Shown piece after piece: positions 1 through 11,928 of a stretch of 64,000 nt of DNA; position 1 is the first letter of the stretch, and every line of letters begins with the position of its first letter. Under the pieces are notes generated by a model. The model did not search any database. It was not told the origin of the DNA and worked only from the letters and a program-made list of their open reading frames with translations. The DNA is from Macrostomum lignano. Lineage: Eukaryota. Position numbers and translations under genes: made by a program. The stretch is taken from positions 372,001-436,000 of the forward strand of contig NIVC01000251.1 of NCBI GenBank assembly GCA_002269645.1, given 5' to 3'.

Positions 1-3000
1 TCGAAGCTCTGTCCCCCGGGCCGACAGACAGCTGCTCATCGCCTGTGCGGAAAGTCGAGTCCCCCTTTGCGACACCGCCCAGTGCTGGAGAAGACTCACC
101 CAATTTTGACGACGACTGAGCCGACGGCTACGGCTGCTCGCGACGAGGCGTGCTTCACGTGTTGCGTCCCGCCCTACAGCCAAGAGTCGCCTGTGCTATG
201 CAGTGGAGGCATGCGCGCTGCTCCATCTGCGGAATCTTCTGTCATGAGAGCGATAAAGAGAACTTCGATTCGAGATCAACGGACGTACGCCGACGTTGTG
301 AGACAAAGTCCCTCGGAGCGACCTAATCCTGACGCCGACAAGACGGTGCCGTGTGATCGACCTGGAGCCATTAAAGCGGAGACTGCGGGAATCCGGACCC
401 CTCAGCCATGCCGCGCCGTGCTCTCTGATTTTCTGAAGCTGCCGATGACTCGCCAACAGTTCGTTGACGCCCAACGCGCTGACCGAGCCATCAGCTATGT
501 GCTCAACCTGGTCAAGGACGAAGCCCCGAAGCCTGAGTTCGACGCCCGGTTGCGCCTGACGAAGGAGCAGCGGAATCTGCTCGGATACTACGAGAACCTG
601 CAGGAGGACAACGGCCTGCTGCTGATTGACCTGTCCGATGGCCAGCAGCCGCCAAAGGTTGTTCTGCCTGAGGCCCTTGACGCCCAGGTGCTCCAGGAGC
701 TCCACAGTTCGCCACTGTGTGGACACCTCGGCGAGACGAAGACGTTACTGCGGCTACGAGAACGGTTCTGGAGACCCGGATTAGCCCGTGCTACCAAGAC
801 CTTCATCAGTAAGTGCCGCACTTGCCTTGAAAGTAAATCGCGACGGCGAGAGAGAGTTCCGGTCCAGAGCTTCCCAGTTTGCGAAGTTCTGGGTAGAATC
901 CACTGTGATGTAGTAGGACCAATCGCGCAGAAGAGCAAGAGCGGTAACCGCTACATCCTGACCTTGTGCGATGCGACGTCGAAGTATCCATTCGCCTACC
1001 CGATGAGAAACCAGAAAGCCAAAACAGTCATCAAGCTTCTGCAGGAGCGCTTCATCCCTGAGTTCGGTGTACCATGCTGGATCCACACCGACCAAGGCAC
1101 CAACTTCACCGGCTCGGCCTTCAAGAAGTTCTGCGACCTGTTTGGCATTCGGCATACGACAACAACACCGTACAATCCAGCTTCCAATGGACAAGTCGAG
1201 AACCTCAACAAGCAGCTGAAGAGTGTCCTCACCTGTCTGCTCGAGCGCAACCACAACGACTGGGACACCTTCCTCCCGGCCTGTCTGATGGCTCTCCGCT
1301 CCAGCGTGCACCCGGTGACCGGCTTCACGCCTCACTACCTGGTGTTCGGCCGTGACTTCCGACTCCCGATCGACAACGCGCTGAAGAAGCTGCCCGAGTA
1401 CGCCGACCTGCCCGACTACGTCAAGGACTTCCAACGTCGCCTGGACGAGGCGACTGAGCTAGCCAAGGAGCGCCTGCATCTGCACCAGCAACTGCGAGAC
1501 GAGCACTATTCGAACCTGCCCGCCGCCAAGAAGCTTCAACCCGGTGATCTGGTCTTCCTCAACAATCCGGTGCTTGAACCGGACGAGGCGGCGAAATTTC
1601 ATCGACCTCGCAAAGCGCTGTACGAAGTCGTCGAGCCCAAGGGCGAGGTCGTCTACAAGATTCGACGGAGACTGCCCAACCCGAGAGCCAGACGAGACGA
1701 ACTAGTCGTCCATCGCCGGAACCTTCTGCTCGTGCCTGACGCTGACTACACGAGAACTTCGGACCCTGAAGTCGACAAACCGAAGAAACGCCGGCGGCCG
1801 CCTGACGTCCCCGACGGCGCAGGACCAGGGACCCTGACGCCAATCCCCGAGGACGACCAGGACGACCCCGACGATGACGATGATGACGGCTACGACGCAA
1901 GGCCGGCCTTCCGATGGCACTTCCGGCCTGTGGCGATCCCGGAGGTGCAGCCAGGAGGTGGACCGGTCACGACACCAGCGAACCAGGCAAGTGCACTTCG
2001 GCGTGAGCCAGTGCCGTATGGTGAATGTCATCTGCATAAGCCTGTTCTTGATGCGTCTATGCCTGCTGTTTCTTTTCCTCCCGTTTCTGCTCCCGCTCCC
2101 AGTGCTGCTTTTTCTGTGGTCCAGACCCCTGGGCCGTCGTTATGCACCACTCCGGTGGAAGCGTCATTAGAATCGGTAGATGCCGGTAGGCCGGCTAGGA
2201 ACCGTAGGCAGCCTGAGAGGCTGGTTATTAATCCTAGGGCCAAGACCTATGTTAGCAGCATCGCCCGCATCCGCTCGCAAATTAAAACGCATTCCAGCGC
2301 AGAAATGCACCGCCGATCCTTCAAGCGCACTGAGCGCTCGCCAACTGAAGAGGACCGAGCCTCTTCCCGCCGCAACCGGCCTAGGATGGAGTCGCCGGCC
2401 TCCTACGCTCGACCAATTGGGGCCATGGCCGGCCAATACGAGCCGTTTGGCGGGCCACCTGATGCCCCACGTCGACCAGTCCTGACCCGTGTGGGCAGGC
2501 CATTGGGCAGGCCAGCGCAGCCTGAGCAGCCACCGCGTCGACGCTCGCCGCCGCCAGAGCGATGGTCCCTGCCCGAGGCCCGCCGGCGAGGTAGAGGACC
2601 TTGCCAGACTGCCAGGGCCCAGCGTGAGATCTTTAGTGATCTCACGAACTCGGGGAATCGGACCCCGGTACGGCGCCTGCAGTCGCCTGCGGCAGAGAGC
2701 GCTCAGCAGATGAACGTGGCACTGAGCGCTCAGGTCAACCGAGAGCTCCCGCGGCAACGCCGGGACCTGAAGGCCCAGCTGACCACCGAAGGCCCAGCTG
2801 CCCGTCGCCCAAAGCCGGAACCTGCGGCCCCAGCCCCGGAAGCCGCCGGGCACGACCACCTTGGAGCTGGAACTTCGGCCGCGACTCTAGACGTGGGAGC
2901 TGAGCAGGAAACCAGCCAGCCTCCAGTCCCTTTGTCCCCGCAGGTGCCCCAAGTTCTGCGATTAGTCGGGCCGGAGCTGCGGGTCGAGCTGGCCTCCCCG

Positions 3001-3597
3001 CCGAGGGAAGGCTCGCCGCTGCTGCCGACAGTGCCCGAAGATGCTCCGGACAGCGACGGCCGGTGCGAGGTGGCCACGCAGACCAGCGACTTAGTCTGGC
3101 CGGGGCCTGAGATGTCGAACAGCGCCCAATCGACCGACTCGGCTGCAGGCCTGCAGCACATCAGCCTACCTCCGGTCCCGCCGAACTCGCCAGAGGGCCC
3201 AAGCGTTGCCACCGCCGCCGCAACTGCCCCGCCGGCCGGCATCGAGCCGGCACCAGACCATCTTGAGGCTGAGGCCATGCCTCCCGGGCTGAGGACGGCT
3301 ATTGATCAATATATAGCTGCCGTCTACTACATAGCCCAGTTGCTAACGACGGCGGCGCACCTGGGCACGCTCCCGACGGTGGCCGAATGGCCACGATGGG
3401 CCGCTCTCCGGGCCCTCACTGACGAGGACCGGCAGCAGCTCCTCGACGACGCCGCCGAAGTTGCCGCCCCCAACCTGCAGCGGCCGCGATACCCGGAGGC
3501 GGTGCGCTACGTAGGTCGGCTGGCGGCCGCGCAAATTGCAGGACGGACGCCGGTGGTGCCGGCCCTTATTGAGAACTGCGACCTAAACGCGGAGTGA
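1..3597 (+). CDS. pol: Gypsy pol C-terminal part: spacer, integrase (HHCC zinc finger, rve core, GPY/F-like region) and a long C-terminal extension; 5'-partial
   Basis: Frame is open from base 1 (no stop before the TTG at 67). H-x7-H (LHSSPLCGHLG) and CRTC zinc knuckle; core motifs IHCDVVGP, IHTDQGTNF, YNPASNGQVE; LYEVV...VYKIR...VVHRRNL GPY/F-like region; RPARNRRQPERL basic motif typical of Gypsy pol ends. Confidence 0.93.
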   Translation, partial: SKLCPPGRQTAAHRLCGKSSPPLRHRPVLEKTHPILTTTEPTATAARDEACFTCCVPPYSQESPVLCSGGMRAAPSAESSVMRAIKRTSIRDQRTYADVVRQSPSERPNPDADKTVPCDRPGAIKAETAGIRTPQPCRAVLSDFLKLPMTRQQFVDAQRADRAISYVLNLVKDEAPKPEFDARLRLTKEQRNLLGYYENLQEDNGLLLIDLSDGQQPPKVVLPEALDAQVLQELHSSPLCGHLGETKTLLRLRERFWRPGLARATKTFISKCRTCLESKSRRRERVPVQSFPVCEVLGRIHCDVVGPIAQKSKSGNRYILTLCDATSKYPFAYPMRNQKAKTVIKLLQERFIPEFGVPCWIHTDQGTNFTGSAFKKFCDLFGIRHTTTTPYNPASNGQVENLNKQLKSVLTCLLERNHNDWDTFLPACLMALRSSVHPVTGFTPHYLVFGRDFRLPIDNALKKLPEYADLPDYVKDFQRRLDEATELAKERLHLHQQLRDEHYSNLPAAKKLQPGDLVFLNNPVLEPDEAAKFHRPRKALYEVVEPKGEVVYKIRRRLPNPRARRDELVVHRRNLLLVPDADYTRTSDPEVDKPKKRRRPPDVPDGAGPGTLTPIPEDDQDDPDDDDDDGYDARPAFRWHFRPVAIPEVQPGGGPVTTPANQASALRREPVPYGECHLHKPVLDASMPAVSFPPVSAPAPSAAFSVVQTPGPSLCTTPVEASLESVDAGRPARNRRQPERLVINPRAKTYVSSIARIRSQIKTHSSAEMHRRSFKRTERSPTEEDRASSRRNRPRMESPASYARPIGAMAGQYEPFGGPPDAPRRPVLTRVGRPLGRPAQPEQPPRRRSPPPERWSLPEARRRGRGPCQTARAQREIFSDLTNSGNRTPVRRLQSPAAESAQQMNVALSAQVNRELPRQRRDLKAQLTTEGPAARRPKPEPAAPAPEAAGHDHLGAGTSAATLDVGAEQETSQPPVPLSPQVPQVLRLVGPELRVELASPPREGSPLLPTVPEDAPDSDGRCEVATQTSDLVWPGPEMSNSAQSTDSAAGLQHISLPPVPPNSPEGPSVATAAATAPPAGIEPAPDHLEAEAMPPGLRTAIDQYIAAVYYIAQLLTTAAHLGTLPTVAEWPRWAALRALTDEDRQQLLDDAAEVAAPNLQRPRYPEAVRYVGRLAAAQIAGRTPVVPALIENCDLNAE

Positions 3598-4470
3598 ACT
3601 AGGATGTGCCGCTTCCCCCCCCCGAATAGCTGCATGCGCAATCTTTAATCCTGCCATGTCATGGTGCCAACATTGCTTTTCTATTTAGGCGCGTTTTCCC
3701 GGGCCTGCGCCCCCGAACTGTCCGTGACTCGTCTCTGCTCGTTCACGCCCGAGGGACCCTGTGCCCTCCGTTTTTAAGTTCTCCCTTCGGGCTCTGCCTT
3801 GGCGTGGGCAACCCACGTGAATTGCTTGCCAATAACTGCACCTCTCCACATTTTTGCGCCTGTTGAGGTGCCTCCACTACGGGCTCTGCACTTGTCGCTA
3901 GCATCCCGGCATTTAGGCGCCTTTTCTTTGCTGGGGCTGGCGTCCCCCTTTTAATTGTGTGCATTGAATCAGGGTCGCACCATGGGCCCTGACCCAGCCC
4001 TCGCCTCCGCGCCGTGTGACATACCATCCTTTTGCCACTGCCGATTATGTTTTAATTATAGCCAACGTTTCTATCTTTTAAATAAAGGCGCGCTCCGCCT
4101 TCACTCCGCCTCTTTATTTGAACGGGGAGAGTGTAGTGAGCCGCTAGTTTATTGTTAGGCGTCGCCCTTGTCAGCCGTTCCCTCGCCCTCCCTTTGGGTT
4201 GCTGTCTGCCGCTGGTCAGCTTCCCGCCCTCCTTTCGCTTGCCTGTTGCCCCCGTGTCCTTTCCGCCCTGTTGCGTTTCCGTTCTCAGCCCTCAGTCTCT
4301 CGACTGTGGGCTGTCTCTGTTTCGCTCCCGTCCCGTTTTCCCTGTCTTGTGAGCAAGTCACATGACAGTTCTTGCGTTCTTTGAGTCTTAAAGTGCAGTA
4401 AACATGTTTACTGCACTCGTTGGCCCTGTTTACCGGGTGAGTCACGTGCTTTCGGACCCTTCCCTTCTCT

Positions 4471-4481
4471 AAGGAGAGGAG
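4471..4481 (+). other. Polypurine tract (plus-strand primer) AAGGAGAGGAG
   Basis: Pure purine run directly followed by TG at 4482, downstream of pol. Confidence 0.7.
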
Positions 4482-4686
4482 TGACTCATGTTGCTAAAAA
4501 TAGCAACTGAGTCACAGCCGCGTGTACTCTGGCCGGGGACCTCAAGTGACGTCAGTTCTAAAAATAGAACAAGTCACGAGGTCTTCCGCGCGCTTGTACC
4601 CTGCCCAAGACTCTCGAGTGACGTCAGTTCTAAAAATAGAACAAGTCACGAGGTCTGGAGCGTGGGAATTTCCCGGCTATAAATAG
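4482..4686 (+). promoter_or_regulatory. LTR U3 enhancer/promoter: AP-1 x2, CRE x2, MEF2-consensus x3, kB-like site, TATA
   Basis: TGACTCA 4482, TGAGTCA 4508, TGACGTCA 4547 and 4619, CTAAAAATAG 4494/4558/4630, GGGAATTTCCC 4664, CTATAAATAG 4677. All read directly; binding is inferred. Confidence 0.65.
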
Positions 4687-5201
4687 GAGCCCTCTCCCCC
4701 TTGTTTCCGTCAAGGAGTCTTCCTTCTGTTCAACCTCGAGTTCTACGTCCGCGTGTGACTAAGTCCCGAGTGTCCGAGTCTTTGCGCACATTGATTCTGT
4801 TCCTATTGCTCCGACTGAGACCCGACCAAACCAATCCAAGTCTACGAGAGGCTAACTCAGCCCTCCCTGTACCATCCAAGCCCGGCAGGTGCTGCTGACG
4901 AGACGCCTTATACGTTGAGCTGCAAATCTGCACGTCGTGCTGTGTTCGTTGACTTCATTATTTCGTTCCGACGGGAAGCTCACCTCACCGAAGGCCGAGA
5001 CCTGAAGGAACTGGTGGCAGCACTACCTACGCTACTAAAGTTAAGAAGGCTTCTAAGTGAGAGGACGGAGCCCAAGTCACTGCGCTGTACAGCAGGACAA
5101 CCACAGGTACAACACCAAATTAGCATTAGATTATATTTAGTATATTGGACTGTTACTGACAGACTACCGACCCTTTGATCCCTTTATTCCCTGGCCTTAC
5201 A
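4482..5201 (+). repeat. Probable 3' LTR (~720 bp)
   Basis: Starts TG right after the PPT; contains a 44-bp internal direct repeat and a TATA box; candidate end ...GGCCTTACA at 5201 precedes AT-rich flank. The 5' LTR is not in the window, so the end is unconfirmed. Confidence 0.6.
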
Positions 5202-7842
5202 TATCTTTTTTTGTTAATCTTAAATTACTTTGTTGCTTTTTAATCTCCGAAGTCTGAGCCTTATAACAAAATTACATATGCAAAAGAAAGTTAGACGTCT
5301 TCAATACATAATGATTCTACGAGCGTATAATAATTATTTTTATTTATTCACAGTTTTTGTAGAAACAAGCTTTTAGAGGATCATAAATGAATTGTATTTG
5401 TTTTGGAGACGTTCCTACGACCTAAAAGATACCTATTGGAGACGTCTAACTTTTTATTGGATAAGTACTTTTATTATACAGGTGACGGCGTCGCAGACTT
5501 TTCTCCAGAGTCCAACTGCACTATATACTTCTTCAGAAAATTCCAAACTCCGAGTCTATACCGAGTTGCTGTATTCGAGAGACAAGCTGGCAAGAGTCGC
5601 GAAGCGATCCCAATTGCACCTTCTTAAAACCCACGTGTGGGTCTAAGGACAGCAGAAGCCACTTTGTGTACTATATGTGGAGTAGACCTGGGCCGTCAAT
5701 TCTTTTAATTTTAATTTTAATTTAATTTAATTAATCCGATTCGCGGAAACGCGCATAGAAAAAAAACTAGGAAGGGAAATCATATCTCCGGTTTATCAAC
5801 ACTATTGAATTGCGATGAGAACTGTCGAACATTCGGGCTCTGCTTCCGCGGCACGCCGGTTCTTGCTTTTTCTTAGTAGCTATTTCTTTTTTACCAATTT
5901 TGGCTTCTTGTGTGGCTGCATGAGAGGCGCGGATAGTTCACTAGCACTTAAAAGAAATCCTATATATACTTGGCAGTTCTTAAACCCTGAAACCTTGAAT
6001 AATAAATCAGAAACTTTGATGCAACAACGAAACAAGCTCTATTTCTAATTGATATCCGTCTGATGCTTGTGTACGTGTGCAGTCAAAGGAAGCCCTTGAC
6101 TTTGGAAAATGAAAATCAATTAACCGACTACCTGCAATTTTTGCGTCCCTAAAATTTTCTTCGTTGATTTGTTAAGTCTTCTATAATAAATTTTTAGCTA
6201 AAATCACTTACCGATTGAATGGTTTAGCCAGATCCTCGGATTGGGGCCGACTTGCTGGCAACACTATGGGTTAGGATCCTGAAAAGAAGATCAAAGTTGA
6301 TAATCTGAAAGAAGTATTGTAAAAAGTCGAAACACGTTTTTATAGTATCCTTCATTGTAGAGTTTGTGAAAATTTGTGGTTTGCGAGACAGACTGCAAAG
6401 GCTGGTTAGAAGTTGTCGCCGTCGCAGGCCTCTGGTCGGTCACGGATCACCGGCCCTGATTGAAGAAATTTTATGGTAGCGTTGGGTCCTGAGGGGTTGG
6501 GCTTATACGGACCACTGTGGCTGTTTACGGTGCTTTTGCTAGTCTGTTGGTGGACCGCTGTTGGTTGACCACGAAGGCTACCAACACCCTTTATGAGCAC
6601 GCGCTCCGTCGGGCCCTAATCGAGAGACTACTACACCAACCAGAAAAATTTTCAACAGGGGATGCTTTGTGGCTGTATTTGACAAAGGCACCAGCGTCTA
6701 AGACTACTAAGAGTAGCGTGATAAAATGTGAACTCTATGCTTTCCAGATGCTCAGTGCGAGAATGGCCCTATATAGGGTTGGAAATTCTACCGGCTTTTC
6801 ATTATTTAACAGATTTCTAACCCACTCACCTGTTTACAGCAGCTCATAGCTTACGAAAAAGTCTCACCTGGCCAATGAAGTTTGACAATCAGCAAGCCAT
6901 TAAGATAAAAGTTATGAAAATAAAAACACTATAGATTTCATGATTTGGGCTAAGAGAAGCTTGTTAATAATTAAGAGTCCTGGGATAAAAAAGTTCGCTA
7001 AATGGAATCGATAAATAATGAACACAATGAGTGCAGGCTCCGGTCTATAGCATTATAGTCTATAGCATCTATTGCGCCCAAGGTAAGCTGAGCACAGACA
7101 AGAGTCACAAACAAGAGAAGGAGAGAGATAGAGGGAGAGAGAGGGAGAGATAGAGAGCACGGTGCAGGCCTAGAGACGGCTGAAGGCGATCGAATCTAGG
7201 GATGATGCTGCTGGCTTGATGAAGCCGAGGCTGGCATCCCTCCCCAATAGGGGTCGGTGTCGTAGAATATTCACTAGGCTGGGGGGCTGGGCGTCACTGG
7301 ATTTTGCTTTTTCAACTTTTTCTGTAATCTTCATTCTTAAATTCATTATTTTTGAATAATTTCAAGTTATTAAATCTAGAGTCAGCAAAATATGATGATG
7401 ATGCTGAAGATGATGCAATACGAAAAAAATCAAAATGTCTTGTAGAATTTACTGTTTTCATTTTACTATTGTAAAAACAAAAACGCAAATATTGCTACTT
7501 TTTTTCGAGTGACATACCTATAGTTATTCTAGTTTCTGTGACTAATTCAGATGCAGTGTGCAGAAACTAATTTCATAACTTTACTTAGCGATGGTGTATC
7601 GAGATTATGCGTATGAGTAGTGCATGATAGATCAAATTGGTACATACATGTACCTACAACAATAAGTCACTGAAAGTATACTTTATGTGCATCATAAATC
7701 GATTCAAAACGAAACAATAGTGTTAGTTAAAAAAAAAACAAAATAATTATTCAACCATATAGATAGCCAAAGCATAGCATAAATTATGCATAAATGTACG
7801 GAGTCCTTCCAAAGTAAGTCTGCAGAGAATTGCAATAAAACT

Positions 7843-9462
7843 CTAATTCAGCAGCCGATACACACACAGCCGTTTCCTACCCCAATCGCACACAATAAGA
7901 GCATTGACCTGTTCACAACGCAATAGCGTCAGTCCAGTTGGATGCTTGAATGTTCTAGCACCGACAGATCTTGAGCTGCTGGCTTTGCTGGTTGAGCTGC
8001 ATATAGTGTCAGTACTATTCTCAGCTGCACTCGATGGATCCGACGATGTCCTGCATGATCCGTCCAGACGTCGAATGGCGCTAAAATCTCCAACGCTCAG
8101 CGCGAGTACCTGGTTGGCGTTCCGCTCCGAAACGAAAACTACGCCGCTCACGGGGTCGACAGCGACACGCCAGGGATGGTGGAGCTCGCTCTGACCGTCA
8201 GCTGGGTAAGTCGCTATGAGCTCCTGACTGATGGTGCACAGTCGGTGAAGCCGGTCATTCTCCAAGTCCAACAGGATCAACTTGGATCCGCACAGAGCCA
8301 AGCCATCTAGTCCGCCAACGTTGAAGTTTTTGAGATTGATCACCCGCTCCAGACCGTAAGTTCCCTGGTCAATTATAAGTATTTCTCTATTCACTTTGTC
8401 CAAAAGAAGTATCCTATTTGAGTCGCAGGCCATGTCGCTCACTAGCAGACTGTAAGAAGATGCGTCTAAATTTAGACTTCGTCTATCTATCAGCCTTTCT
8501 AAGTGACCACTAAGATCTGTGACTGTCACTGCAGAGCCCTGCGCTATGAATAACAGTTGCCTAACGCTGTCGCAGTGAATGCCAAGAATCCAGTTGGACC
8601 AATTGATTCCCTCGCAGTGGCAGCGAAATCGACTGCTGATGCTTTCCTGTTTATCATTCACAATCGTTGTTACCAAAAGGTGTTCAACTTGCTTTCGCCC
8701 GAAAGCCACATAGATCAAAGGCATCGGCAAGCACGACGCATCTTCTAAACCTTCAGCATCGATGGCTCGAATTATGCGACACGAGGCATCACTAAAGAAA
8801 CCCGAGGAATTGGTGCAACAGGTCACGTGATAGGGAGTACTTTCGAGTTTACTAATTAATCCTATCGGTAGGCAAACATCCTGCTCTGCTTCGTTGGATT
8901 TTTCCAAGTCTAGCCAACACCGCTTCATCACTTTCCTCACGTGTCGGTCGGTCTCAAACAGCAACTCCTGAATCCCTGCTGCCACATCGCCGACAACTCT
9001 GAAACTGACGCCTTCACTCGCGGAACTTTGCCTGCTGCGCAGCTCTGAACGAGCTCTTTTGAATTCGGATACTCTCTTGTGAGCTTCTAGCAGCCAGGCT
9101 TGATTTGCGTCTGTCATGGTACTCTGCTCAATAGTAACAGACGAATCTTTTTTCTTGAGCTGTTGTGCTCGTGAGGCATCTTCCAATCTCTGAGCTACTG
9201 AGTCTTCTATCGATCTCAATCGAGTGACGATTTTTGACCTCCAACTAAGAAGTTTCTCCTGTACAGCATCGAACATTGCGTGGGTTTCTTGAATTTCCGT
9301 CGCCAGAATCTTCAGTTCAGTTTCCGAAGCTGTAGTTTCTTCGACTGACATACTAAGAAAGTTCAGCTTGTGTAGAACATCGTTTTCTTGTGCTGTTAAA
9401 TAGATGGGATTTTCAGCACAATCGGACGAGTTGTTTTTTACGTTTTCGACGTAAATTTCCAT
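7843..9462 (-). CDS. Intronless coiled-coil + NHL/beta-propeller protein (TRIM-NHL-like without RING/B-box), 539 aa
   Basis: ATG-to-stop ORF; N-terminal heptad-rich helix; C-terminal NHL-type blades (LHHPWRVAVDPVSGVVFVSERNANQVLAL; FKHPTGLTLL...LIVCDWGRKRLCVYRL). Confidence 0.8.
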   Translation of the reverse strand: MEIYVENVKNNSSDCAENPIYLTAQENDVLHKLNFLSMSVEETTASETELKILATEIQETHAMFDAVQEKLLSWRSKIVTRLRSIEDSVAQRLEDASRAQQLKKKDSSVTIEQSTMTDANQAWLLEAHKRVSEFKRARSELRSRQSSASEGVSFRVVGDVAAGIQELLFETDRHVRKVMKRCWLDLEKSNEAEQDVCLPIGLISKLESTPYHVTCCTNSSGFFSDASCRIIRAIDAEGLEDASCLPMPLIYVAFGRKQVEHLLVTTIVNDKQESISSRFRCHCEGINWSNWILGIHCDSVRQLLFIAQGSAVTVTDLSGHLERLIDRRSLNLDASSYSLLVSDMACDSNRILLLDKVNREILIIDQGTYGLERVINLKNFNVGGLDGLALCGSKLILLDLENDRLHRLCTISQELIATYPADGQSELHHPWRVAVDPVSGVVFVSERNANQVLALSVGDFSAIRRLDGSCRTSSDPSSAAENSTDTICSSTSKASSSRSVGARTFKHPTGLTLLRCEQVNALIVCDWGRKRLCVYRLLN

Positions 9463-10083
9463 GTTGATTTATCCGAAGCTCGGCAGCCTGTCTACAGGTG
9501 TACCTGCTATGAAGCTTAACTGTAACTCTTACGTAGCTAATATATATTTACTGGAGATTTCGTCTGTCAAACTTACTTTACTGTGTAATTTCTTATCTCT
9601 AAAATATGTCGATTAAATTATTCTAAATTCACCTATACTAAATGTTATTTCTAAATTCGTGACTTCAGTATTTATTAGATAAAATCTCTGATTTTACACC
9701 AACAATAGCCACAGAGAATTCAGCGAATGCAGAGAGTAAAATAGAACTTGCCATTGTGTACGTGCAGTTCGTACCTGTATATTTACGCATCTGTATGCAC
9801 ATGAGGAGAGACATTTTCAAAGTGGAATTCAAATTGAAAAGTCCGATGCGAATCACGCGCTGTTGTTGTGACATTTCGGGCTGGAATTGGCAGACTAAGA
9901 AATGTAAACATGAACCGGATAAATGCGGTTTTAAAATGATTTACTCTGCTACTTTTACTTGCGCAGAAACAAAATTAACAAAAACAAATAGCTTTCCGTT
10001 TTCTACTTGATTTTCATTTTCAAGTCGACCCAACGAAGGCGTCAACTGCTAGTAAGACCGAAAGCTCGACTAAAGGCACAGAG

Positions 10084-11928
10084 ATGACTAAATTGCTGCA
10101 ATTTTCTATCTTCTGTCTCGCTCTCGTTGCAATTAACGCAATCCGATTCGATCTGTCGTCAAGACAGTCACTAATCCGTAACGAGCAGCGTCACCGATCC
10201 AGGGTCAGGGGATTCGGACTTAACTCGAATTCTCCCCACGTGATGAGGATGCAGCAATCGCTCAAGTCGCAGGTGGTACAACAAAATGATTTTGACATGC
10301 TGATAAAATATGAGCATCAAAGAAATCATCGAAAAAAATCAGCAGATGATTATGTGTCAATGGCCAGCATTGTCTACAAGAATGGCAAGTTTCAAATTGC
10401 CGCCAACATCTGGGCAGATGACGCGTTAGCCTACGGAATGTTGGCCCGTTCGCTCAACAGTACCGGCTGGGACGTGCTTGACATCGTGACTACCATGGAC
10501 AAGTCGTTTAAGAATGACACAGCCGTGATGTACGCTGCTGGATTGCTTGAAGGCTACCTAACAGCCGATCGCATCGCCCTGATGTACCAGAACTCGATTG
10601 CGACCGAATTTCCGACTGAGCAAAGCCGAAAAGTGCTACTGCCGAAAGTTCGCAATTTTCTAACGCGCCAGTACAAATGGGCCCGATGCTTTGCCGCTGA
10701 GAATCCGAAGTCTGCTTTTCATAGGCACACAGGATTTGTCATGACTCAGCTTGAAGGACTCATCGATGGCTATTTGGCTAGTAACGATTCAGTAGTACGA
10801 GATCCGTTTGTGCTGCTCATGCTCAATGCAGCTGGAGATCTTGGCGACATCAAGACTGCGCTTAACGACACTAAACCCGATTTCTTTGACCGAATGTCCA
10901 ACGACGAATTTCGAAACTATGTACAATCAACCGGTCACTGCTCGGCTCTCATCAGGGTAACGCCGGGCCTAGAACGTCTGTACATGGGGCACTCAACTTG
11001 GTCTTCCTACTCAACAATGCTAAGAATTTACAAGCACTATCAAGTGAATCTGTCAGATCCGGAAGCCGCAAGTCGTGGAATGTCCTTTTCCAGCTATCCC
11101 GGGTGTCTAGTGTCCATCGACGATTTCTACATTCTCGACAGCGGTATGGTCATGCTGGAAACTACAAATAATGTGTTCAACGTGTCGCTATTTAAAACAG
11201 TGAAACCTGAAAGTCTACTCTCGTGGCAGCGAGTCCGGATCGCCAATCAAATAGCACAGAACGGTAGTCACTGGGCTTGGGCGGTTAGCCAACAGAACTC
11301 GGGGACCTACAACAATCAGTACATGATAATTGATCTCAATCGAATCCATCCTAATGCGTCCATCGATGACGGAGCGCTGACTGTCGTGGAGCAGATCCCG
11401 ACTCTGGTGGTGTCTTCGGACCAGACGGGCCTGCTGCGCACCGGCTATTTCCCTTCCTATAACGTGCCGTTCCACGAGACGATCTACAACCTGAGCGGCT
11501 ACCCGGATGTGGTGAAGCAGCGCGGCCTGGACTTCTCCTACCAGATGGCGCCTCGAGCGAAAATCTTCCGCCGGGAGGCACCTCGAGTCTTCGACGCAGC
11601 CGGCATGGCGGCCGTCCTTCGCTTCAACGAGTTCGCCGACGATCCGTACTCCGAGGGCGACGCGTGCAACAGCATCTGCTGCCGGAGAGACCTGAGACCG
11701 GCTGGAAAAGACGCCGCACCGTCGGGCTGCTTGGACTCAAAGTTCACAGATCTGGACATGGCCAAGTACATGACTAGCTACGCTATCAGCGGGCCTACAA
11801 CCGGCAGTTCAAGTCGGAAGCTTCCACCCTACGCTTGGAGCCAGTTTTTGAACGTCAGCCATATGGGACTGCCGCCTGTTTACAACTTCAGCTGGGTGAC
11901 AATGAGCCCCACTGTTCTGCTCGGATGA
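10084..11928 (+). CDS. PLBD1: Phospholipase B-like 1 (lysosomal Ntn-hydrolase), intronless, 614 aa
   Basis: Signal peptide MTKLLQFSIFCLALVAINA; GHCSALIRV autocleavage/nucleophile Cys; MLRIYKHY, FSSYPG, NSGTYNNQYM, EQIP, SYNVPF, APRAKIFRR, ICCRRDL, AISGPT all follow the PLBD1 rather than PLBD2 pattern as recalled. Confidence 0.93.
   Translation: MTKLLQFSIFCLALVAINAIRFDLSSRQSLIRNEQRHRSRVRGFGLNSNSPHVMRMQQSLKSQVVQQNDFDMLIKYEHQRNHRKKSADDYVSMASIVYKNGKFQIAANIWADDALAYGMLARSLNSTGWDVLDIVTTMDKSFKNDTAVMYAAGLLEGYLTADRIALMYQNSIATEFPTEQSRKVLLPKVRNFLTRQYKWARCFAAENPKSAFHRHTGFVMTQLEGLIDGYLASNDSVVRDPFVLLMLNAAGDLGDIKTALNDTKPDFFDRMSNDEFRNYVQSTGHCSALIRVTPGLERLYMGHSTWSSYSTMLRIYKHYQVNLSDPEAASRGMSFSSYPGCLVSIDDFYILDSGMVMLETTNNVFNVSLFKTVKPESLLSWQRVRIANQIAQNGSHWAWAVSQQNSGTYNNQYMIIDLNRIHPNASIDDGALTVVEQIPTLVVSSDQTGLLRTGYFPSYNVPFHETIYNLSGYPDVVKQRGLDFSYQMAPRAKIFRREAPRVFDAAGMAAVLRFNEFADDPYSEGDACNSICCRRDLRPAGKDAAPSGCLDSKFTDLDMAKYMTSYAISGPTTGSSSRKLPPYAWSQFLNVSHMGLPPVYNFSWVTMSPTVLLG

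Follow-up and report, generated by a model that had tools for sequence, protein, structure and literature searches.

The U3 promoter of a young Ty3/gypsy family in Macrostomum lignano is interpreted here, with a probability of about one-half, as a signal-gated switch that was built by tandem amplification of a single bZIP/MEF2 unit. The cassette concerned sits in the U3 region of the 3′ long terminal repeat (LTR) of one family member, within the 64,000-nucleotide stretch of DNA that was analyzed (the window). The interpretation is supported because a tight CRE-MEF2 pair is kept in 54 of 61 LTRs, in one to three units, because the host shows the same pairing and encodes the factors, and because other LTR families of M. 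lignano use heat-shock elements in like fashion. It is weakened because the tight pair is missing from all 18 regions that were examined near bZIP, MADS and Rel genes of the host and because the host arrays are not placed at classic immediate-early genes. Judged from its motifs, the cassette appears to be a conserved LTR enhancer of a known kind, and its novelty would lie in mirroring an apparently undescribed host composite.

The two LTRs of the element are each 983 bp in length with no difference between them, and the 5′ LTR lies 9.2 kb upstream of the 3′ LTR. As its LTRs are identical, the window copy is a recent insertion and not the old insertion by which a host-domesticated enhancer would be recognized. 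The portion of the element within the window comprises the following features.

1–3597, forward strand: 3′ part of the pol frame, with integrase followed by a low-complexity tail of ~600 amino acids
4120–4131, forward strand: polypurine tract directly 5′ of the 3′ LTR, assigned by sequence
4132–5114, forward strand: 3′ LTR, 983 bp, TG...CA ends, identical to the 5′ LTR (G000:C251:366928)
5115–5118, forward strand: 4-bp target-site duplication, CCAA

Target duplications of 4 bp also flank four other copies of the family. Reverse transcriptase (RT) and RNase H are encoded upstream of the window, in L031, and the element has gag followed by RT, RNase H and integrase in that order. The gag frame of the window copy contains an in-frame stop, as was the case in two of ten copies counted. 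The primer-binding site 3′ of the 5′ LTR starts with TGG and is presumably of the tRNA-Leu type. No env-like Pfam match was found in the part of the pol frame at 1–3597. Beyond integrase, pol continues for ~600 residues as a proline/alanine-rich tail (1750–3597), and the stretch 5′ of the purine tract varies among copies. The primer-site word TGGTGGCAGC is repeated inside the LTR at 5012–5021, in a strongly conserved U5 block, and sister families (L281–L283, L268, L271) have two or three such words. Just 3′ of the LTR, at 5262–5478, a pair of 45-bp inverted repeats may represent a small inverted-repeat element. The upstream end of a receptor-like frame, labeled by eye (L031:120-1697, reverse strand), is 1.2 kb from the element, and a 541-residue frame with no Pfam match (7843–9468, reverse strand) and a phospholipase B gene (9979–11928, forward strand) are 2.7–4.9 kb from it. 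In contigs from eight sequencing runs, the LTR was covered in most runs guessed to be RNA, little in two, and there was no coverage over 5304–7291, a pattern that would also arise from a trace of contaminating DNA, as the repeat has hundreds of copies, and that is given no weight in either direction. A GT..AG joint at 3816–4088 in these contigs was rejected as a splice: it also occurs in the DNA-like run X18, and genomic copies differ there.

The preliminary description of this DNA had viewed positions 4482–4686 as an LTR enhancer composed of AP-1, CRE, MEF2 and kB-type motifs. That assignment stands, as the LTRs are paired and identical and the cassette motifs are conserved among copies, and every motif that it named was recovered at its position. 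AP-1 sites at 4482 and 4508 form an inverted pair around the MEF2 site at 4494; CRE palindromes at 4547 and 4619 are each followed after 3 bp by CTAAAAATAG (4558 and 4630); and the kB-type word GGGAATTTCCC at 4664 precedes CTATAAATAG, a TATA box and MEF2 consensus, at 4677. The duplication within the cassette had been given as 44 bp with an offset of 72: the offset is correct, and the repeat is exact only over 40 bp (4545–4584), with one mismatch over 44 bp. The conserved cassette also reaches upstream of the limits set previously to include a forkhead-like pair and an E-box. The predicted sites are as follows, with the column identities among the aligned copies described below.

4358–4365, forward strand: TCACATGA box, identity 0.85
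4392–4417, no strand assigned: inverted repeat with two forkhead-type sites, GTAAACA/TGTTTAC, identity 0.85–0.87
4438–4448, forward strand: overlapping AP-1 site (not kept as AP-1) and CACGTG E-box (0.96)
4482–4514, forward strand: unit 1, AP-1, MEF2, AP-1, identity 0.98, 0.99 and 0.99
4541–4584, forward strand: unit 2, CRE, 3 bp, MEF2, AGTCACGAG (AP-1-derived position)
4613–4656, forward strand: unit 3, CRE, 3 bp, MEF2, AGTCACGAG, identity 0.99, 0.96 and 0.98
4664–4674, forward strand: kB-type site, GG/CC ends 0.97–1.00, center 0.25–0.84
4677–4686, forward strand: TATA box and overlapping MEF2 consensus, with an invariant core (1.00) and last G 0.66
4706–4712, forward strand: initiator-like word ~30 bp 3′ of the TATA box

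The eight sites are not independent, but represent three copies of one bZIP-MEF2-bZIP unit whose number varies from one to three in the family. In other subfamilies, either AP-1 or CRE can occupy the first position of the unit, and either TGAGTCA or AGTCACGAG the third. When positions 4482–4686 were shuffled with dinucleotides preserved, none of 5000 shuffles held one each of AP-1, CRE and MEF2, and positions 5201–64000 of the window contain no CRE and a single strict MEF2 site. Transcription is predicted to start near 4708. No canonical heat-shock element (HSE) was found in 4100–5450 and no CArG box, CC(A/T)6GG, in the LTR. The TCACATGA word is taken to be a MITF/TFE-type box and GTAAACA/TGTTTAC to be forkhead-type sites, a third of which is located at 4427–4433.

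Conservation of the cassette was assessed in copies that were identified by a 16-base U5 word, which has 481 matches in the genome versus none for the control. This anchor was chosen because copies found through the motifs themselves are biased and the best matches (97–100% alike) are uninformative. A search with the primer-site pattern found only 10 copies. Seventy of the 481 places were sampled by taking the first 30 in the list plus 40 of the 70 that followed; in nine of these, a TATA box was missing at the expected distance, and the remaining 61 LTRs were counted. The exact pair of CRE, 3 bp and MEF2 occurred once in 25 LTRs, twice in 26 and three times in three. Among the 61 LTRs, CRE was present in 57, MEF2 in 59, AP-1 in 56 and forkhead-type sites in 55, CACGTG in 44 and TCACATGA in 41, and the MEF2-type TATA box in 44 and the kB consensus in 20. 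The units are offset by 72, 71 or 64 bp in this sample and by 84 bp among the matches to CRE-N3-CTAAAAATAG, with the pair within all of them. The latter pattern matched the genome 785 times, versus none for the control, and all 19 of the places that were fetched are related to the window LTR.

Column identity, measured relative to the base in the window, was determined from 57 copies aligned over >700 bases that were reduced to 32 by dereplication (30 for the upstream segment). The AP-1, CRE and MEF2 columns showed identities of 0.96–0.99 versus 0.73 for the linkers in the 32 copies; values elsewhere were 0.72 in 5′ U3 and 0.60 in U5 at 4723–4900. The motif-linker gap was reached by 4 of 145 circular shifts. 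Although the copies are 80–90% alike overall, five consensus words remain at 0.96–0.99. Thus, in the comparison that the preliminary description had proposed, these motifs are preserved well above the linkers in diverged copies. As U5 4900–5009 (0.90) and some unnamed U3 blocks are conserved about equally, conservation alone is no proof of factor binding. The upstream sites raise the prospect of a nutrient or starvation switch in which FoxO-type forkhead factors and MITF/TFE-type boxes would cooperate with CREB and MEF2. CREB and MEF2 are both controlled by salt-inducible kinases, and the upstream sites are widespread in the family with column identities of 0.85–0.96. However, the forkhead pair lies within a hairpin that could persist as an RNA or DNA structure, and the AP-1 and kB sites fit poorly with such a switch, which is considered distinctly improbable.

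Conservation was uneven nearest to the predicted start. The TATA box was described previously as itself a MEF2 consensus, which is true of the window copy, but this form is kept in only the 44 LTRs noted above. The kB-like site likewise is present in the window, whereas across the family only its GG/CC ends are conserved: exact GGGAATTTCCC occurs in 1 of 60 copies and is a subfamily trait. The commonest form, GGGTGTTTCCC (26/60), misses the kB consensus and could, we presume, be an E2F-type word. In the most diverged subfamilies, the kB consensus is present without the MEF2-type TATA box.

The origin of the cassette was examined in four sister groups with 52–69% RT identity, for which 20 stretches located 5′ of RT were inspected, one of them cut by a contig end. 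Neither the CRE-MEF2 pair nor a match to the LTR was found in any of these 20 stretches. The nearest sister group instead has a lone MEF2 site ~300 bp before the TATA box in all three copies with an LTR. As the sister groups lack the pair, the cassette is best viewed, on this sequence comparison, as a family-level acquisition. In a distant relative (L041, L042) that can be aligned only in U5, the CRE-3bp-MEF2 arrangement is kept with different spacer letters, although this relative was found through the motifs and so is a biased observation. No convergent use by another retroelement family was found; a site close to a Copia element was rejected, as it falls outside the 287-bp LTR of that element.

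Pairing in host DNA was monitored by searching for a CRE followed within 20 bp by MEF2 in the orientation that the family does not use. There were 155 matches, compared to 7 for the reversed pattern and 20 for a same-orientation decoy in which the CRE was replaced by its reverse; these counts are inflated because ~29% of the 380 kb of host DNA scanned is tandem repeat. Spacers of 3–5 bp accounted for 51 of the 100 matches listed. After matches were grouped by hand into independent loci, with L112 and L115 dropped as host sites since both are family members, 17 of 35 loci had spacers of 3–5 bp (p = 1.5e-6 versus a uniform distribution), compared to 1 of 9 decoy loci (Fisher p = 0.06). Many of the host pairs belong to tandem arrays with a period of 37–49 bp, often in introns, whose linkers are little alike between loci. 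In the arrays at L101–L106, L113, L071 and L119, units of CRE and MEF2 recur at ~40 bp, often as two arrays 500–1000 bp apart. Between neighboring units of 11 arrays, 621 of 699 motif positions matched versus 708 of 851 positions elsewhere (0.89 versus 0.83, a small excess; p = 0.002, with positions that are not independent), and in four of the 11 a motif scored below the linker. Overall, host DNA appears to favor the CRE-(3–5 bp)-MEF2 spacing that is seen in the LTR cassette, a composite element that is apparently undescribed.

These data also bear on the proposal that the motifs have no factor function, but were retained because of recent ancestry, template slippage or RNA structure, the host arrays being minisatellites with chance motifs. 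In favor of this view are the youth of the family, the prevalence of tandem repeats and the conservation of part of U5 that has none of these motifs. Nevertheless, the near invariance of five consensus words among diverged copies, and a peak in spacing at 3–5 bp over unrelated host loci whose linkers share little besides the motifs, make this the least probable of the alternatives.

Inspection of 140 frames in 20 host regions placed the arrays within or next to genes that encode MCU, a GRK-type kinase, a P-type ATPase, a tyrosine phosphatase, PSMD5 and ankyrin proteins, which are not classic immediate-early genes. No bZIP-MEF2 pair within 12 bp was detected in any of the 18 regions examined near bZIP, MADS and Rel genes of the host. 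One alternative is that the cassette is a constitutive enhancer of a cell type, muscle or neurons being the likeliest, in which MEF2 would be the driver and CREB/ATF a steady partner with no stimulus switch. MEF2 sites outnumber all others and are the only type found in the LTR of the nearest sister family, the MCU and P-type ATPase genes handle calcium, and the tight pair is absent near genes of the immediate-early type. Set against this, AP-1 is conserved as well as MEF2, the LTR has no CArG box, and calcium handling is indicated in only 2 of the 20 regions. On balance, a constitutive enhancer seems unlikely.

Several further features of host DNA were observed. The Fos/ATF3-like genes (L252, L253, L255) have looser MEF2 clusters with AP-1, kB or CArG sites nearby, and near such a gene MEF2, kB, CArG and AP-1 sites fall within 280 bp (L253:6610-6890 and L255:5732-6011, in gene orientation). 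At gene-associated sites the asymmetric MEF2 word reads CTAAAAATAG on the sense strand in nine of nine cases (L101, L102, L103, L105, L106, L107, L109, L116, L118), a bias that possibly avoids a TTTTTAG splice acceptor. Possible repeat-built regulatory arrays were also seen (L226, L229, L208, L105:6712-7290), in which minisatellites carry AP-1 words next to bZIP exons of CREB3-like and ATF6-like type, CRE-like words next to a CREB exon, and kB words within an MCU intron.

The host was confirmed as M. lignano, a flatworm, through a protein translated from the genome that showed a 100% match to a named record. Its genes include ones for CREB-, Jun-, Fos/ATF3- and MEF2-like proteins, as labeled by eye from sequence. 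The preliminary description had also recommended a search for Rel-homology proteins and had suggested that, as a flatworm host may lack NF-kB, NFAT-type factors could bind the kB-like site. Of the 24 genomic matches returned by the search, 10, 6 and 5 are clustered at G000:C109:280817-388359, C475:52891-90672 and C1505:189111-215205, respectively, and one each lies on the contigs C85, C103 and C278. All nine translated Rel exons contain RFRYxxE. A full Rel protein of 395 amino acids with a basic C-terminal stretch aligned over its DNA-binding and dimerization parts to RelB, c-Rel and p65 as the best structures; no NFAT chain was recovered for it at E<=1, although an exon-wise search of the genome may have missed NFAT itself. 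The suggestion regarding NFAT is not supported by these results, as the host Rel set seems from its sequences to be closer to Rel/NF-kB than to NFAT and to be expanded. As the host encodes proteins of this class, the kB-type site has candidate readers other than NFAT. Divergent Rel-domain genes are reported in Schmidtea, according to the accessible text (PMC13563047), and one survey, in the part available, lists Platyhelminthes without p50/p105 (PMC11432056). The clusters reflect a tandem expansion of short Rel-class genes, in addition to which there is a solitary gene; the proteins that were seen have no ankyrin match, and in one Rel gene a kB-type word recurs in 24 copies of a 22-bp minisatellite (L264).

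The abundance of Rel-class genes also is compatible with a promoter for immune responses that, like those of Drosophila antimicrobial-peptide genes, combines a Rel site with a MEF2-TATA box. The kB-type site is directly 5′ of the MEF2-type TATA box, its GG/CC ends are conserved, and the accessible account of the compound boxes in the fly describes them as required for immune induction (PMC3807682). However, the two elements are kept in 20 and 44 of the 61 LTRs, respectively, the most diverged subfamilies retain one without the other, and the commonest form of the kB-type site is off consensus, such that this possibility is very unlikely.

In the preferred signal-gated switch, CREB/ATF and MEF2 would bind the adjacent predicted sites and would be activated together with Jun/Fos by calcium, cAMP or stress-kinase signals. 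AP-1 would act in the first unit, the number of units would scale the output from the TATA box at 4678 with a start near 4708, and modulation by a Rel dimer bound to the variable kB-type site would be dispensable. Selection would operate via the copying of the element itself instead of through benefit to the host. A broader and more tentative proposal is that M. lignano possesses a CREB-MEF2 composite of fixed geometry that has been multiplied as ~40-bp intronic minisatellite enhancers. The retrotransposon family might have captured this composite, tuning its dose by unit number and carrying several-fold more exact copies than the host loci (785 versus 155), and might thereby act, in an animal that regenerates, as the chief means by which a wound- or calcium-responsive code is spread, with expanded short Rel proteins as modulators. 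The analysis points to a host regulatory grammar in which a spacing-constrained CRE-MEF2 pair is tandem-amplified in introns as well as in a retrotransposon. The cassette is a candidate reporter of injury or activity for a regeneration model that is tractable to transgenesis, and the family would make it possible to ask directly whether retrotransposons gain access to stem cells by exploiting the response to wounds. Moreover, the expanded Rel-class genes correct the view that NFAT must be invoked to account for a flatworm kB site.

No paper on the present cassette or the host pairing was found in the literature that was covered, with most subscription journals outside that coverage. The cassette nevertheless can be set beside several known systems. 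Direct repeats in retroviral U3 enhancers include the 72–75 bp repeats of MLV and the CRE repeats of HTLV-1, and resemble the present LTR in being tandem enhancer units that vary in copy number. The EBV BZLF1 promoter contains MEF2 and CRE/AP-1 sites and likewise shows use of MEF2 and CRE logic by a parasite. Unlike these viruses, the present element has another site composition, and no env-like frame in the part examined. The AP-1/ATF and MEF2 sites of the vertebrate c-jun promoter are closely spaced. That promoter shares bZIP and MEF2 sites with the cassette and is subject to p38-type activation, as set out in the text available (PMC2628930). In contrast to the cassette, the c-jun pair is single-copy in a host gene, and the tight bZIP-MEF2 pair was absent from both M. 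lignano jun-like regions examined.

The preliminary description had likened the cassette to the enhancer of Arc. The resemblance holds insofar as the Arc SARE enhancer, as presented in the accessible text, also has CREB and MEF2 sites within ~100 bp (PMC3561385). It fails for SRF, whose CArG site is part of SARE but is absent from the cassette, and the latter differs also in its repeated pairing at a fixed 3 bp and its promoter-proximal location in a mobile element. Drosophila antimicrobial-peptide promoters share a kB-type site beside a TATA box that can be read as a MEF2 site, although the fly consensus given in the part of the paper available is CTATAWAAGM or CTATATAAAGC and not the TATA word found here (PMC3807682). 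Moreover, unlike in the fly, neither the kB-type site nor the MEF2-TATA box is fixed in the family, in which CRE-MEF2 units dominate.

The closest parallel is within M. lignano itself. According to the accessible text, the LTRs of the Mlig-id115, id36, id55 and id38 families make use of HSEs, as shown with reporter mutants, and plant ONSEN is cited as a like case (PMC12801592). That text mentions MEF2, CREB, AP-1 and NF-kB zero times, and the present family may be among the 137 families that it covers. The two systems share the same host, the Ty3/Mdg4 superfamily and an LTR promoter that has captured repeated stress elements of the host in a family-specific manner (PMC12801592). Whereas those LTRs depend on HSEs, the present LTR has none and instead employs a combinatorial code of bZIP, MEF2 and Rel sites that is found also in tandem arrays of the host.
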